Positions 9,398 through 18,491 of a stretch of 21,109 nucleotides of DNA are shown here, one piece after another. The notes below the pieces were generated by a model. The model did no database searches, was not told the DNA's origin, and worked only from the letters and a program-made list of their open reading frames with translations. The DNA comes from a virus (taxonomy: Duplodnaviria > Heunggongvirae > Uroviricota > Caudoviricetes): positions 1 to 21,109 of IMG/VR virus record IMGVR_UViG_3300035659_001474, one strand, 5' to 3'. Each line of letters opens with the position of its first letter. Position 1 is the first letter of the stretch. Position numbers and translations under genes: made by a program.

Positions 9398-9904
9398 CTA
9401 TAGTAATTTCAAATGACCAGTTACTTCATCAATCTTCTCCGAAAAATCAGGCCCAATGGCCAAACAAGTAATAGTCTTCACGCCCTTAAACTCTGTCAAC
9501 CCATTATCCTCAATCAAAGCAACAGGCAACTTCAACCGCTCAGCTTTTACCTTAATCTCTAGTAACTCTTGTTCTGAACTCACTTGTAAACAAATTTTAG
9601 TGAATATACCCTCCATCCACTCTTTCATCTGCTGATTAATACTCAACATCGGCTCACCATTTACATACTCAATCCTATCAAAAAATATCTTCATTGAACT
9701 GTGGCAGCCTTGCGCTACCATTTTTCCCTTACGCATGTTCAAATCAGTTCTCATGACAATTACTTGCTTAATCATAGTTGTAACCTCTTCATAAGTAGTA
9801 AATCGATGACCAAGTTCACATATGCGACGACGTCGAATACGGTCATCAGATTTTCTAGAATCAATAACCTTAGACACCTTATGACATTGTGGACAAAGAA
9901 GCAT
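9398..9904 (-). CDS. pth2: Peptidyl-tRNA hydrolase Pth2 with in-frame N-terminal NrdR-like Zn ribbon
   Basis: KQVIVMRTDLNMRKGKMVAQGCHS, KICLQV, IEDNGLTEF, TCLAIGP, VTGHLKLL; N-terminus CPQC..KVIDSR..IRRRRIC..GHRFTTYE. Confidence 0.93.
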   Translation of the reverse strand: MLLCPQCHKVSKVIDSRKSDDRIRRRRICELGHRFTTYEEVTTMIKQVIVMRTDLNMRKGKMVAQGCHSSMKIFFDRIEYVNGEPMLSINQQMKEWMEGIFTKICLQVSSEQELLEIKVKAERLKLPVALIEDNGLTEFKGVKTITCLAIGPDFSEKIDEVTGHLKLL

Positions 9905-10105: not shown

Positions 10106-10418
10106 TGCCCAAGGTCGGACTCGAACCGACACGGCCTTGCGACCAAGAGATTTTACATGCTAACTACGCCTTTCGACGCCGGTTTTCACCGTTTGTAGTC
10201 TGGACTTTGTCTTCACCATCGTGAGAATTTCTCACATTAGGTGGATGCCGTTAAGTCTCTACACCTTCTAATACTTTTCAGTACTAGCTTGGCTCGGCGT
10301 TGGGTCGAGTTTAACCTCAGGCCGTTCACCGAATTTGACATCTTACATCTATACCGTTTCCAGTATAGCGACCCTCATTTGCGAAAGTCTCTAGTGTCTG
10401 CCATTCCACCACTCGGGC
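10106..10418 (-). tRNA. tRNA-Leu(UAA) split by an intron (exons 10418-10386 and 10155-10106)
   Basis: Joining the exons gives AGAGA-CTTAAAA-TCTCT, a long variable arm and TTCGAGT T-loop. Confidence 0.92.
10156..10385 (-). ncRNA. Group I self-splicing intron (IC3-like), 230 nt
   Basis: 5' exon ends in U, intron ends in G; GACU/GGUC P1; AAATTCGGTGAA, GTAGAGACT and GAAGACAAAGTCCA core elements. Confidence 0.9.
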
Positions 10419-13855: not shown

Positions 13856-14770
13856 CTACCGCAATAAAACTGTTTTCAATTTTGCAATGCATTCATCTAA
13901 ACTATTCTTAATGTCACTAGCAGTAAACCTAATAATTATCCAACCATTATTTCTTGACCATTCATCTCTCTTTTTATCTTTATTCTTAACAGAATCTAAA
14001 GTATGAGTCTTACCATCAATTTCTACATCAATTTTACTATTTACAAATGCGAAATCATATTCATAAATTCCAATTTTATACCTTTGCTGCCATCCACAAA
14101 TGTCATGCTCAATTAATGCTTTTTTAAACAATTCTTCAACATATGAAAGTTTAGAGCTATGATATAATCTATATGGTAGCTTATCAGGATTATCACTAAA
14201 GAACTTTTGCATAGATCTAGAAAGCTTTTGTTTTGACTCACTAGAGTGCGACCAATGTTGTTTATGCACTTTGCAATCTTTTAATGCAATTTTAGCAATT
14301 ACCTTACCATACTTTCTTCTAAGTTCGCGTTTTGTCATGCCTGTGTCATAAAGTTCTCTAATTTGATTCAACAGAGCTTGCTGATGATTATTGATTATTG
14401 TATGACAAGACTTTTGATGTCTAATTAAATTGCCTTTGTTAAAACTTCTATTACATTCACATTTGATTAAGCCACCAAAATAATGGCTTTTGTCAATTAT
14501 TTTTCTTCTAGTACTTATTTTTCTTCTAGTACTTTTATGAGAAAGATATTGACTTTCACTTGAAGATCTTGCTTGCATATTTCTAAGAGCATAATTAATC
14601 ACTTCTCTAGTATAACCTAATCGCTTTATTTCACGTTTAGAGAAGCCATCATTGTACAGATCTATGATTTTGTTAAAATCGTCGTCTGTTACTTTACAAC
14701 GAAAATTGTGTTGACTACAAGTTGATTTGTTGCTAAATGCTCGATTACATTTATCACAAATGTAATTCAT
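13856..14770 (-). CDS. DUF559/Vsr-like putative homing endonuclease with duplicated Zn-finger/HTH modules
   Basis: YEYDFAF..KIDVEIDGKTH...DKKRDEW..NGWIIIRF. Confidence 0.85.
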   Translation of the reverse strand: MNYICDKCNRAFSNKSTCSQHNFRCKVTDDDFNKIIDLYNDGFSKREIKRLGYTREVINYALRNMQARSSSESQYLSHKSTRRKISTRRKIIDKSHYFGGLIKCECNRSFNKGNLIRHQKSCHTIINNHQQALLNQIRELYDTGMTKRELRRKYGKVIAKIALKDCKVHKQHWSHSSESKQKLSRSMQKFFSDNPDKLPYRLYHSSKLSYVEELFKKALIEHDICGWQQRYKIGIYEYDFAFVNSKIDVEIDGKTHTLDSVKNKDKKRDEWSRNNGWIIIRFTASDIKNSLDECIAKLKTVLLR

Positions 14771-14800: not shown

Positions 14801-15103
14801 CTATTTTGATTTCAACTTCTGAAAAAAATTCTTACCCCAATCAGACTCAATCAACAATTCATGAGGAAACAACCTGCTATGAGAATATACAAAATCCCCA
14901 TAATATCCCTTACCATCTTTACCCATGCACCAAACATCAGAAACTTCTCTCAAAACAGGTAATAATACTTCACTCTCGACATCTTTCTTCATCACAAGTT
15001 TAACTCTATGACGAAGCTTACGATTTGCAATCTGCTTATCTTTCTTCTCACTCCTACAACCACTGTGTCCTGCGACTAGATGCTTACGATAAGAACGCGA
15101 CAT
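14801..15103 (-). CDS. Basic 'MSRSYR'-type hypothetical protein, copy 2
   Basis: AAGGAG SD; MSRSYRK..SEKKDKQIANRKLR..REVSDVWCMGKDGK. Confidence 0.8.
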   Translation of the reverse strand: MSRSYRKHLVAGHSGCRSEKKDKQIANRKLRHRVKLVMKKDVESEVLLPVLREVSDVWCMGKDGKGYYGDFVYSHSRLFPHELLIESDWGKNFFQKLKSK

Positions 15104-15125
15104 GTGCAACTCCTTGTTAAGGTAA

Positions 15126-15134
15126 TTACATCAT
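15126..15134 (-). promoter_or_regulatory. Two-codon minigene ATG-ATG-TAA
   Basis: Preceded by AAAGGAGG at 5-nt spacing; ends 22 nt upstream of the MSRSYR start. Confidence 0.7.
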
Positions 15135-15161
15135 GCGTTCCTCCTTTGTTAAATTTGAAAA

Positions 15162-15233
15162 TAGGCGCGGGCGGAGTCGGACCGCCAACCTGCTGGATGT
15201 AAGCCAGCTCATCTGCCATTGATATACACGCCC
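15162..15233 (-). tRNA. tRNA-Val(UAC)
   Basis: GCTGG-CTTACAT-CCAGC arm; T-loop TCCGACT. Confidence 0.9.
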
Positions 15234-15398
15234 TTAAATTTTCACGCCAATCGGTTCTTTATTGTCGATGAGCTTTTGTAATTTGACCGTACTATCTACA
15301 GGAAGACTCAATTTTGCCAGTAATTCTTTAGCTACTTCTCTAGCAGCTAAATCATCAATCTGTTCCATCGGAATCTTAATCATCATCTGGTACTTCAT
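15234..15398 (-). CDS. Small hypothetical protein (54 aa)
   Basis: AAGGAG SD before MKYQMMIKIP. Confidence 0.6.
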   Translation of the reverse strand: MKYQMMIKIPMEQIDDLAAREVAKELLAKLSLPVDSTVKLQKLIDNKEPIGVKI

Positions 15399-16605
15399 TT
15401 GAATCTTCTCCTTTAGCACGCTTAAAACAATTCTTTTCATAAAACTCTAACATATTTTTTCGCATCCACCTATTAATTTTTTGTGGCCGCTTATTAAGTA
15501 TAATTGCAACTTGTTTTACCCAACCAAACTTTGAAAAATTAATGTTTGATTGTAGTATTTTATTAACTTGATTTTGTCTTAGTAACTGTTTACTACTTTC
15601 TATTTCTTGTGACTTACATTGCTTTCTATTAGCTATCTCGTCTAATGCATGTAAACATCGTAATTGGTTATTTGTAAATTCAGACATCAACACATTTCGT
15701 GTTTCTTTGTGTTTTAAGATTTCTGCGATTTGATCAAATTTAGTCTTTGAATCTTTAAATATAGCTTGCCAAGATATTCTAAAAACATCAATATTTTTTG
15801 ACTTTATTAATTGATCTTTTTTATCATCAATAATTTTTCGTCTAATGTATCGATAATGTTGTTTACCGTCAATTTCAATTACTAGCGCTAATTCTGGAAA
15901 ATAAAAATCTGCTCTATAAATTGAAAACGGAAATTCAGTGAAAAACTGTTTATTATGTTCATAACCTTGATTTATTAAGAATTCAAAAAACACTTTTTCA
16001 GCATAAGACTGTCTGTGCCATGTATTTGCTCGTTCTTCTTTATGCAGTTTTTTACATTTTTCAGAAAATCTTTGTTTTGATTCTTCAGACCACTTAAAGG
16101 AGTATTTAGTATGTGCTAATTTACTTGCCTCTGCAGCTGATCGTCTATGTTGTCTCAAAGCATGTTTTATAAGTCCAGTACTAAATCCTTGTAAGACTAT
16201 TTCACTTGGCGACTGTCCAGATTTATATAAACTTCGAACTTTTTCAATGTCAATATCAGTATATTTAAGACAAGTATGTCGTTCGAAATTTCCTTTGTTA
16301 AATGACTTATTGCACTTACTGCAAACTATACGGTTATTACTAAAATTGTTTACTTTCTTTCGTTGTGCTTTAGAATGTGATATTTTTAATGTCTCACTAG
16401 CAGTTCTTTTTAAGTCTTTAACACATCTATTAACTTGATTTCTTGTATATCCCATATTAACTATGTCAACTACAAATTGCCCAGATCTATACAAGTCTCT
16501 AATTTTTTGTCGATCAGGTTTAGAAATGGTGCAATTCTTCTTATGTGATGCGAAACCTCCAAAATTTGAAAAAATCTTATCACAATTTTCGCATTGCAAA
16601 TTCAT
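15376..16605 (-). CDS. DUF559/Vsr-like putative homing endonuclease (409 aa)
   Basis: AAGGAG SD before MNLQCENC (the track start is inside tRNA-Ser); YRADFYFPELALVIEIDGKQH...DDKKD..FRISW; duplicated N-terminal modules; C-terminal HTH-like tail. Confidence 0.85.
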   Translation of the reverse strand: MNLQCENCDKIFSNFGGFASHKKNCTISKPDRQKIRDLYRSGQFVVDIVNMGYTRNQVNRCVKDLKRTASETLKISHSKAQRKKVNNFSNNRIVCSKCNKSFNKGNFERHTCLKYTDIDIEKVRSLYKSGQSPSEIVLQGFSTGLIKHALRQHRRSAAEASKLAHTKYSFKWSEESKQRFSEKCKKLHKEERANTWHRQSYAEKVFFEFLINQGYEHNKQFFTEFPFSIYRADFYFPELALVIEIDGKQHYRYIRRKIIDDKKDQLIKSKNIDVFRISWQAIFKDSKTKFDQIAEILKHKETRNVLMSEFTNNQLRCLHALDEIANRKQCKSQEIESSKQLLRQNQVNKILQSNINFSKFGWVKQVAIILNKRPQKINRWMRKNMLEFYEKNCFKRAKGEDSNEVPDDD

Positions 16606-16630
16606 GATATCTCCTTTTAGAGTATCATGA

Positions 16631-16658
16631 ATTATAAACAAACGTTCAATTCCGACAA
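16631..16658 (-). promoter_or_regulatory. Possible sigma70 promoter for the endonuclease gene
   Basis: TTGTCG-16 nt-TATAAT. Confidence 0.45.
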
Positions 16659-16678
16659 TTAGAGAATCATGGCATTTT

Positions 16679-16765
16679 TGGCGGTGAGTGAGAGACTTGA
16701 ACTCCCATATCCCTTTCGGGACGCTCGAATTCGAATCGAGTGGACTGCCATTATCCGAACTCACC
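16679..16765 (-). tRNA. tRNA-Ser(CGA)
   Basis: CTCGA-TTCGAAT-TCGAG arm, long variable arm, G73, encoded CCA. Confidence 0.92.
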
Positions 16766-16786
16766 GTAATGTTACTCTCAAATAAA

Positions 16787-16871
16787 TGGATCGGGAAGGA
16801 TTTGAACCTTCGTAGTCCGTTAGGACGACAGATTTACAGTCTGTTACGATTGACCACTCTGACACCGATCC
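16787..16871 (-). tRNA. tRNA-Tyr(GUA)
   Basis: ACAGA-CTGTAAA-TCTGT arm, long variable arm. Confidence 0.95.
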
Positions 16872-17133
16872 AAATTTCATTTCTTCTTGCTTTCCATTCA
16901 GGTATGGGTTCATGTACTTCGAGTTCTCCACTCCAACATGATACCCAGGGCCACGGATCCCACCGACTCTTATAGTCGCAAATATTCCAGTTATCAAAGT
17001 ATTTGCGATAGATTTTGCCGTTTGGTACGTCTTTAGCTCTTCTGATCACGCGATTAGCTTCTCTTTTTGCAAACTTTTTGTAGCTAGAGCCATAGCCACA
17101 AACGAAGACTGGTTCGCGATAACTTCGAGACAT
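16834..17133 (-). CDS. Basic 'MSRSYR'-type hypothetical protein, copy 1
   Basis: AAGGAG SD; MSRSYRE..KKFAKREANRVIRR..FDNWNICDY; 3' end overlaps tRNA-Tyr. Confidence 0.8.
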   Translation of the reverse strand: MSRSYREPVFVCGYGSSYKKFAKREANRVIRRAKDVPNGKIYRKYFDNWNICDYKSRWDPWPWVSCWSGELEVHEPIPEWKARRNEIWIGVRVVNRNRL

Positions 17134-17156
17134 GTTGTTCACTCCTTGTTAGTATT

Positions 17157-17165
17157 TTACAACAT
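17157..17165 (-). promoter_or_regulatory. Two-codon minigene ATG-TTG-TAA
   Basis: Preceded by AAAGGAGG at 5-nt spacing; ends 23 nt upstream of the MSRSYR start. Confidence 0.7.
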
Positions 17166-17196
17166 ATTGACCTCCTTTAGTTGAAGTTGAAAAAAG

Positions 17197-17271
17197 TAGC
17201 CCATAGCAGAGTCGAACTGCTGTCAACGCCTTGAAAAGACGTGGTCCTAAAAACCGCTGGACGAATGGGCC
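17197..17271 (-). tRNA. tRNA-Glu(UUC)
   Basis: ACGTC-TTTTCAA-GGCGT arm, TTCGACT T-loop. Confidence 0.93.
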
Positions 17272-18291: not shown

Positions 18292-18327
18292 AAAAACCCC
18301 GTCGATCTGTTTGACCGGCGGGGTTTT
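18292..18327 (-). terminator. Intrinsic terminator of putative attenuator 2
   Basis: AAAACCCCGCCGGTC-AAACA-GATCGACGGGGTTTTT. Confidence 0.9.
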
Positions 18328-18356
18328 GTGTTTAGCCTAAGTGTTTTAGGATTAAC

Positions 18357-18491
18357 TCAAACCCCGCCTGTCCATATCTTATCATAGCCTTCGTATCCAA
18401 GCGACAGCCATGATAATTTGGACAACTCCAATACCACGTGTCGTTTGACACGTTCTATTGATAGCGTGGTATGAAGTTGTAGGGTTTGCAT
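18357..18491 (-). CDS. Putative 44-aa attenuator leader peptide
   Basis: GGAG SD; MQTLQLHTTLSIERVKRHVVLELSKLSWLSLGYEGYDKIWTGGV; last codons and TGA overlap the antiterminator strand GGCGGGGTTT (18368-18359). Confidence 0.7.
   Translation of the reverse strand: MQTLQLHTTLSIERVKRHVVLELSKLSWLSLGYEGYDKIWTGGV

Follow-up and report, generated by a model that had tools for sequence, protein, structure and literature searches.

A compensated hairpin pairs a two-codon minigene with the ribosome binding site of small basic protein genes in phage tRNA arrays: a candidate ribosome-dwell switch

The window considered here is the whole stretch of phage DNA that was analysed, 21,109 nt in length. It contains two related genes, copies A and B, both on the minus strand, and inspection of the sequence places each of them behind an SD-AUG-X-UAA element, that is, a two-codon minigene with its own SD. 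The relevant features are as follows.

9401..9775, minus: Pth2 peptidyl-tRNA hydrolase
ATG at 15103, TAG at 14803-14801, minus: copy A gene, 100 codons, encoding a basic protein of subfamily A
15100..15136, minus: copy A hairpin, in which the minigene pairs with the main-gene SD, spacer and AUG
15115-15110, minus: copy A main-gene SD, AAGGAG
15134-15126, minus: copy A minigene, ATG ATG TAA (Met-Met-stop), in the 5' hairpin arm
15147-15140, minus: SD of the copy A minigene, AAAGGAGG, outside the hairpin and 5 nt before the minigene ATG
15162..15233, minus: tRNA-Val, ending 28 nt before minigene A
16786..16872, minus: tRNA-Tyr, into which the extended end of copy B runs
ATG at 17133, stop at 16836-16834, minus: copy B gene, 99 codons as assembled, subfamily B
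17130..17167, minus: copy B hairpin, in which the minigene pairs with the main-gene SD, spacer and AUG
17147-17142, minus: copy B main-gene SD, AAGGAG
17165-17157, minus: copy B minigene, ATG TTG TAA (Met-Leu-stop), in the 5' hairpin arm
17178-17171, minus: SD of the copy B minigene, AAAGGAGG, 5 nt before the minigene ATG
17196..17271, minus: tRNA-Glu, ending 31 nt before minigene B
18292..18491, minus: start of the tRNA unit containing copies A and B, with a leader ORF of 44 codons and a terminator-like hairpin

These coordinates bear out the shared layout (SD, two-codon minigene, SD, gene) that the first-pass annotation had claimed for both copies, with AUG-to-AUG distances of 31 and 32 nt. 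The hairpin between the minigene and the main ribosome binding site (RBS) is a feature absent from that annotation; it has an energy of -13.8 kcal/mol in copy A (z -3.7 against constrained shuffles) and -7.8 kcal/mol in copy B (z -2.7). The gated genes are located inside phage tRNA arrays, and the contig of the window encodes Thg1, RtcB and Pth2, the last of which had been claimed earlier and is indeed present.

The two proteins are homologous (96.7% in a profile-profile comparison), as expected of the MSRSYR paralogs described previously, but they do not form a recent pair: judging from their sequences, A and B are two old subfamilies. A recent duplication was considered and rejected by the tree, and the closest relative (L269) has B without A. 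The motifs of subfamily A in copy A, which has a net charge of +10, are KR.ANR and REVS..W..GKDGK, and those of subfamily B in copy B are KR.AN, NGKAYRK and W.I.DY. Over the family, the median net charge is +10 with 25% Lys/Arg, and 176 of the 215 members end in RK directly before the stop codon, window copy B being an exception. Subfamily B alone comprises 2,297 clusters at 50% identity, and stand-alone chromosomal copies occur in many phyla, some of them with a similar leader.

The family has no match in Pfam, PHROG, NCBIfam or the PDB sequences, and its matches in the ESM Atlas are clusters of hypothetical proteins only. In particular, none of the named rescue-factor families was matched in Pfam/NCBIfam, searched with the window proteins and 75 A-type members, or in the PDB sequences. 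RMF was matched by one of 75 members at an E-value of 0.017, a single weak match that we treated as due to chance. A literature search with the N-terminal motif as a word found nothing. The predicted structure is a single basic helix with unstructured ends, in low-confidence, non-globular models; fold searches with the two models gave no match, the best Z-scores being 2.9 and 3.3, a result that does not demonstrate absence. The bacterial loci have no recurring protein neighbour, and an association of the family with rtcB was not borne out there; among the phage records, 12 of 34 encode RtcB and 4 have RF-1 domains. Five genomes carrying the gene yielded no ArfA, a sample too small to be meaningful.

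On the 128-kb phage contig, SD-AUG-X-UAA precedes only 2 of 154 SD-led starts, namely those of copies A and B. The upstream scan of homologs that the first-pass annotation had proposed was run on fetched loci, which are related to each other, so that the counts overstate the number of independent events: the minigene precedes 45 of 76 B-type phage or metagenome homologs (35 of 51 metagenome and 10 of 25 viral genes) against 2 of 502 control ORFs, whereas under the strict two-codon rule it precedes only 3 of 63 viral and none of 62 chromosomal A-type genes, a few further A-type genes having longer leaders instead. The minigene is a conserved cis-regulatory element of this gene family, in keeping with the earlier claim that it is kept despite protein divergence; since most A-type genes have no such leader, the gate is not required everywhere. 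In most homologs the two AUGs are 29-36 nt apart.

The constant part of the leaders is the stop codon of the minigene. It is UAA in 42 of 50 leaders, in which the last codon is Leu in 28 cases, Met in 11 and Ile or Val in none. Leaders range from 1 to about 18 codons, with the stop kept 20-29 nt upstream in the same hairpin arm and mostly preceded by Leu, Phe or Met. In orthologues, start-stop, three-codon and 7-18-codon leaders stand in for the two-codon form, and longer leaders ending in Phe-stop or Leu-stop fold the same hairpin, including on bacterial chromosomes. The device also stands in front of genes for other small basic phage proteins of unrelated sequence; single-protein scans for relatives of L303 and L309 returned only self-matches. 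At L338, the stop that anchors this hairpin belongs to a complete gene of 85 codons, an arrangement that is ordinary coupling.

Several lines of evidence show that the hairpin is under selection for pairing. Against shuffles that preserve both SDs, the AUGs and the stop, 38 of 45 distinct leaders have z-scores lower than -2. The pairing energy is -9.6 kcal/mol for cognate arms and -5.3 kcal/mol for swapped arms, with none of 20,000 permutations as good; double-sided changes were observed in 42 cells against 13.9 expected (0 of 500 shuffles); and pairing reaches 84% in the true register against 33-63% in slid registers. RNAalifold, unaided, recovers the identical outer stem. Codon 2 covaries with the three bases opposite (0 of 500 and 0 of 20,000 shuffles), and exact complements of codon 2 and facing bases (ACU/AGU, CUA/UAG, ACG/CGU, UCG/CGA, UUU/AAA, UUG/CAA and AUG/CAU) occur on separate branches of the tree. 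As this covariation shows, the minigene (AUG, codon 2 and stop) pairs with the main-gene spacer and AUG, and the inner stem involves the SD. The leader has no match in Rfam, and no such 45-nt device was found there or in the literature searched.

In toeprinting, the ribosome reaches about 16 nt beyond the first base of the P-site codon (PMC9226507, PMC12121999). When this distance is applied with the minigene stop in the A site, the computed edge of the footprint is the base directly before the downstream SD in both window copies. The ribosome on the minigene had been supposed to cover that SD; by this calculation the footprint stops just short of it and masks instead the repressing 5' arm of the hairpin. 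To open the main RBS is predicted to cost a median of 12.9 kcal/mol when the minigene is free and 3.6-3.9 kcal/mol when a ribosome occupies it, and the SD core starts at least 9 nt past the minigene stop in 38 of 43 leaders. The predicted effect of a minigene ribosome is therefore to switch the gene on rather than to cover it. Note that no more than 26-33 nt separate codon 2 in the P site from the main AUG, and a ribosome that is stuck at the stop may thus still get in the way of another. The gap between the stop and the main gene has no frame preference.

We propose the following mechanism, which, taken as a whole, we consider slightly favoured. At rest, the hairpin would hide the main SD and AUG, and the gene would be off. 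Ribosomes would load at the minigene SD, which lies outside the hairpin, and a 70S ribosome there is computed to cover the 5' arm, leaving the downstream SD just past its edge. In normal translation, one peptide bond would be followed by release and departure, and the hairpin would re-form. A ribosome that dwells, be it on the start codon, on codon 2 or (the likeliest site) on the stop, would instead keep the main start accessible and let the protein be made, by analogy with toiL and ermCL. The product would bind RNA as a short, non-globular protein rich in Lys/Arg, its two ends being fixed (MSRS... and ...RK); its most likely action would be on ribosomes, and with about an even chance it would relieve the block and close a negative feedback loop. 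The parts of this proposal differ in strength. It is very probable that the hairpin represses and that the minigene ribosome opens the lock; that the leader is a dwell sensor and not a constant coupler is, by analogy, reasonably probable; that stalling is relieved through an action of the protein on ribosomes falls a little short of an even chance. A role as a ribosome rescue or binding factor, as suggested before, is plausible.

If the leader were instead a plain coupler, each minigene ribosome would open the hairpin or restart at the main AUG, giving a low constant output of a protein whose overproduction has to be avoided. The L338 hairpin on the stop of an entire preceding gene, the absence of a frame preference and a gap of 20-27 nt, within the coupling range of PMC13285730, agree with this; however, a weaker SD would give a low rate more simply, and unrelated gene families share two strong SDs, a compensated hairpin and a biased last codon, so that we regard constant coupling as unlikely. 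In the model of the first-pass annotation, the minigene ribosome would hide the downstream SD and repress the gene, whose expression would then report efficient termination or recycling. The starts are indeed close (31-32 nt), and occlusion of a nearby RBS by a ribosome is documented in the uRBS of Sinorhizobium meliloti (PMC13285730), where, as here, one leader holds two nearby RBSs. Nevertheless, the tested repressive cases there have starts 5-16 nt apart, the occlusion screen covered 3-25 nt, and the window copies lie outside that range, the phage device generally having 29-36 nt and a hairpin. Since the selected hairpin already masks the main RBS, an occluding ribosome would leave no on-state, and the SD lies just beyond the expected footprint; occlusion has a very slight chance of being correct.

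The minigene might also act in trans as a lambda-bar-like source of dipeptidyl-tRNA, reporting Pth status or sequestering tRNA. Two codons, a strong SD and UAA are traits of the most toxic minigenes (PMC8708949) and are found here, and, of the phage records, 11 of 23 with the leader and 1 of 11 without it encode Pth2 (Fisher p 0.05, the records being related). However, the records of L087 and L108, which are 100% and 96% complete and both minigene-bearing, lack Pth2, which leaves the earlier link to lambda bar and Pth weak. The strictly short working frame of toxic bar-type minigenes is not kept, other leader lengths replacing the two-codon form, and the pairing with the downstream RBS suggests action in cis. 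The codons with the most peptidyl-tRNA drop-off are AUA, AAA and AGA, but codon 2 is never one of these, and we consider a bar-type role the least probable reading. Alternatively, after tRNA excision a ribosome on the strong 5' SD could, with the hairpin, shield the short mRNA from decay. The minigene AUGs follow the tRNA 3' ends by 28 and 31 nt, which suits such protection, and a two-codon minigene raises txe translation, possibly in this way (PMC8708949), but codon 2 would have no need to pair with the main spacer, and the device also occurs without a nearby tRNA (L096 and L098); we consider it highly unlikely. Finally, the switch may work as proposed while the protein serves to inhibit or park the ribosomes of the host, or uses an arginine-rich helix to bind leader RNA or the precursors of tRNAs. 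The predicted basic helix with unstructured ends suits any RNA target, and tight repression is typical of toxic genes, toiL controlling a toxin (PMC12121999); on the other hand, the stand-alone chromosomal copies, some with a similar leader, speak against this, and the company of tRNA and RNA-repair genes suggests translation support, making such a product unlikely.

The dwell switch that we favour resembles known systems, and by analogy we regard the device as a minimal leader switch of the toiL/erm type on uncharacterised genes. In Escherichia coli toiL-topAI (PMC12121999) and in ermCL/cat, a uORF with its own SD pairs with the downstream RBS, which becomes free when a ribosome is retained on the uORF, including at the start codon or at termination; start-codon stalling on toiL unpairs the topAI SD. 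The phage switch differs in its size of only about 45 nt, its two-codon uORF, its AUG-AUG pairing and its location in tRNA arrays. The vmlR uORF(MIN) and ARE-ABCF leaders of Bacillus subtilis (PMC9226507) likewise have a very short uORF (three codons in vmlR) in a stem with a single-stranded SD ahead, but the vmlR leader has 219 nt, a terminator and four stems, whereas a single hairpin here acts directly on the next start codon. The arrangement SD-AUG-X-stop is shared with axe-txe (PMC8708949) and lambda bar. The txe minigene is positive in cis and distance-dependent, in a leader in which no structure was found, while bar minigenes act in trans through peptidyl-tRNA; the conserved, compensated hairpin is found in neither. 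The proteins are small and basic like ArfA, BrfA and ArfT (PMC8012679), which are mutually unrelated in sequence and whose synthesis depends on ribosome trouble. The phage family has no sequence match to these three and, unlike ArfA and BrfA, for which control lies in non-stop mRNA and tmRNA tagging, keeps its stop codon and RK end and would be controlled at initiation.

The regulatory logic is already known, and the phage device is about its smallest possible form. It offers a way into the function of a very large unnamed family and of at least three further families that lack a name: a gene placed behind a lock that ribosomes operate probably has to do with ribosomes. Should the products prove to be rescue or protection factors, they would extend the short list of ArfA, ArfB, BrfA and ArfT and show phage countermeasures to translation-targeting defences. 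Our broadest proposal, which is tentative and rather doubtful, is that large phages and some bacteria place unrelated small basic proteins under one ribosome-dwell sensor, as an undescribed rescue or protection class deployed with tRNAs against defence-jammed translation, with the MSRS family at least regulating itself through termination or recycling. The 45-nt switch may also serve as a compact reporter of ribosome stalling.

A further observation concerns the end of copy B, which is known from assembled contigs alone and reflects either a sequence error or a real mutation: as assembled, the usual RK-stop is lost near 16880 and the frame enters tRNA-Tyr, giving 99 codons against 85 residues in a relative that is 92% identical.

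The two minus-strand genes for small basic proteins beginning MSRSYR (copies A and B) have the cassette layout described in the first-pass annotation: a strong SD, 5 nt, the minigene AUG-X-UAA, a second SD and the MSRSYR gene start. The features on the window are as follows.

15134-15126, minus strand: copy A minigene, X = Met
15103-14801, minus strand: copy A gene
17165-17157, minus strand: copy B minigene, X = Leu
from 17133, minus strand: copy B gene

Among the 154 SD-led starts of at least 40 codons on the whole contig, only those of copies A and B are preceded by a minigene, and a leader covariance model run over the contig found no strong site beyond these two. An upstream scan of homologs in the two corresponding subfamilies, A and B, used a strict rule (SD-AUG-NNN-stop, 10-32 nt ahead of the start). 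The supposed conservation was borne out: the minigene was found in 35 of 51 metagenome B genes and 10 of 25 viral B genes, against 2 of 502 control ORFs. The figure for viral A genes was 3 of 63, and the strict two-codon form was found in 0 of 74 chromosomal genes. Codon 2 of the minigenes is Leu in 28 cases (five different codons), Met in 11, Thr in 6 and Phe in 2, and never Ile or Val among the homologs; the stop is UAA in 42 of 50, and the gap that follows is mostly 20-27 nt. In the reverse test, viral contigs were scanned with DNA patterns for the layout; of the 16 loci picked up, eight lead to the MSRS family.

The minigene is also the 5' arm of a hairpin that the first-pass annotation does not mention. 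The main AUG is the pairing partner of the minigene AUG and the spacer that of codon 2 and the stop, while the main SD is bound up in an inner stem. Of 45 distinct leaders, 38 had a z-score below -2 when shuffles kept both SDs, both AUGs and the stop fixed (-3.7 for copy A and -2.7 for copy B), and RNAalifold found the outer stem unaided. The pairing energy is -9.6 kcal/mol for arms of one locus versus -5.3 for swapped arms (observed value matched by 0 of 20,000 permutations), and both-side changes in a 38-sequence alignment occupy 42 cells versus 13.9 expected (0 of 500), related sequences in both counts not being independent events. The covariation signal in this alignment is gone in slid registers. 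On separate tree branches, some ten forms of codon 2 each lie opposite their exact complement; judging from these sequences, descent alone cannot be a sufficient source of such triplet-for-triplet changes. In two loci (L315 and L294) the MSRS-family gene starts with AUA, which still pairs with an intact Met-Leu-stop minigene. The gene at L275 (1171-1470) encodes a protein with 81% identity to copy A; in its leader the SD-minigene arrangement has been lost, along with most of the hairpin.

Counted from the first base of the codon in its P site, a bacterial ribosome gives a toeprint about 16 nt downstream (PMC9226507; PMC12121999). In both copies, a ribosome with the minigene stop in its A site has its computed edge on the base directly 5' of the downstream SD, and one with AUG in its P site has it 3 nt further upstream. 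The main SD core starts at least 9 nt past the minigene stop in 38 of 43 homologs. The predicted opening cost of the main binding site is 16.0 kcal/mol for copy A and 8.6 for copy B, and when ribosome-covered bases are blocked it drops to 4.0 and 3.1, respectively; the predicted homolog median drops from 12.9 to 3.6-3.9 kcal/mol with a minigene ribosome. The minigene ribosome had been thought to cover the downstream SD; instead, its predicted edge stops just before the SD and the opening cost falls, which indicates that the resting state is off and that a ribosome on the minigene would turn the gene on.

The device works like a leader-ORF translational attenuator and has the testable features of that class. 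Opening of the hairpin by the ribosome is computed, and, by analogy with toiL-topAI and vmlR, which provide the model for such induction, ribosomes dwelling on the minigene would induce the main gene. An occluding uRBS was rejected on the features tested: documented cases have starts 5-16 nt apart (PMC13285730), whereas those of copies A and B are 31 and 32 nt apart. The lambda bar-type minigene proposed earlier was likewise rejected on the features tested. With the first ribosome at the stop, the P sites are just 28-29 nt apart, and steric hindrance with a second ribosome at the main start is possible. The hairpin is also able to act as ordinary translational coupling, as is shown by L338, where it is anchored to the stop codon of a complete gene upstream; in this locus (1728-2233), a tRNA is followed by a tandem pair of small basic genes from different families, and the stop-anchored hairpin couples the second of them.

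For the attenuator, the constant part across leaders is the stop codon. The leader is start-stop in L220 and three codons in L201, and other members, including chromosomal genes of Bacillota (L278, L279) and Pelistega (L124, L157), have 7-18-codon leaders ending AVF, AF, VF, EF, GL or VL, whose final codons and stop lie in the same hairpin arm. In Obscuribacterales chromosomal copies (L129, L155, L164, L165, L177, L179, L181), a strong GC-rich hairpin covers the SD, and an upstream frame ends AVF or AVL. Pairing with A-rich spacers accounts for part of the Leu/Phe/Met bias ahead of the stop, but the absence of Ile and Val hints at an additional constraint. Since the stop is kept in the arm and the preceding residue is biased, termination or recycling is most likely the sensed step; any arrest on the two-codon frame would act alike.

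The phage does encode Pth2, as stated earlier, and the proposed link of the minigene to Pth is weak: Pth2 is present in 11 of 23 leader-bearing records versus 1 of 11 others (p 0.05; the records are related), but is missing from two near-complete records that have the minigene. The association is loose company among translation genes and not a requirement. The Pth2 frame (window 9398-9904, minus strand) continues upstream for 43 codons into a stretch that resembles an NrdR zinc ribbon; the SD-led start of Pth2 itself is at 9775.

The conserved, covarying hairpin is spread over several gene families. With a two- or three-codon leader, it heads a 58-residue Arg-rich family (L295, L322), a family ending KPHxYYW (L334, L337, L339; L336 has the same hairpin), two genes of L300 and, in a five-codon-leader form, a CSCxxCGNPRR protein (L309). 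The KPHxYYW proteins gave no match to MSRS profiles, and no named function was found for the non-MSRS proteins of L295, L322, L334, L337, L339, L300 and L309. Of the 2,801 SD-led starts across all loci, those outside the MSRS family contributed just 8 that passed the same filter, half of the eight having been chosen by pattern scans. The unrelated small basic proteins headed by the device comprise at least three unnamed families, besides one 178-aa gene.

Copies A and B have little common sequence past the first 31 residues, which confirms the strong divergence noted earlier alongside an unchanged cassette layout. The profiles of the two subfamilies align (96.7% probability), and A and B are old subfamilies. 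Motifs are KR.ANR and REVS..W..GKDGK in A and KR.AN, NGKAYRK and W.I.DY in B; the MSRS start is common to both, 176 of 215 members end in RK, and the median net charge is +10. At 50% identity, subfamily B by itself has matches to 2,297 clusters. In two phyla the gene is present in about 1% of the genomes sampled, and it occurs across many phyla and in a few isolated phages, always annotated as hypothetical; no family name was found in Pfam, PHROGs, NCBIfam, ESM Atlas or PDB sequences. The predicted models (pTM 0.40 and 0.49) are not compactly folded and consist of a single basic helix with extended ends, a picture expected for a protein that folds on RNA. In leader-bearing phages the gene is nearly always within a tRNA array, and no fixed protein neighbour was found in bacterial loci. 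Charge, fixed ends, company and control suggest that the protein may act on the ribosome. It may work like the alternative rescue factors ArfA, BrfA and ArfT; membership in these families was rejected by sequence and by regulation. The closest relative phage has B and lacks A; in another, A and the same leader lie behind a different tRNA, so leader and gene move as a cassette.

Relatives of copy B end KARRK-stop a few bases before tRNA-Tyr. In copy B (window 16834-16885, minus strand), the RK-stop end is lost and the frame runs 14 codons into tRNA-Tyr; an A run near 16880 appears one base shorter than in relatives. The source contig has identical letters here, which is not an independent check, and the loss is either a sequence error or a real mutation. 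If it is real, the conserved end is gone, tRNA excision would leave a non-stop message, and copy A may be the working gene.

The window makes up the left end of the 128-kb viral contig, which comes from a sediment sample and is 62% complete (CheckV). It has 20 tRNA genes, all on the minus strand, and also encodes Thg1 and HNH-type and DUF559 nucleases. Two zinc-finger/DUF559 nuclease genes (13856-14770 and 15376-16605, minus strand) lie inside the tRNA array adjoining copy A; they are absent at the corresponding place in a relative (L269). At the head of the tRNA unit (18292-18491, minus strand), a 44-codon leader ORF is followed by a terminator/antiterminator-like hairpin pair, which would put transcriptional control above the minigene switch. 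An Rfam group I intron match (10177-10395, minus strand) lies between tRNA-Met and the Pth2 region. Outside the window, further along the contig, the RtcB RNA ligase match is in two pieces (contig 29503-31822, minus strand) around a long insert, perhaps an intein or intron. TAG is used as a stop in 14 of 82 long ORFs on the contig, despite an amber suppressor-like tRNA with a CUA anticodon (contig 33583-33657, minus strand); the related loci L082, L090 and L198 have tRNAs with CUA or UUA anticodons.
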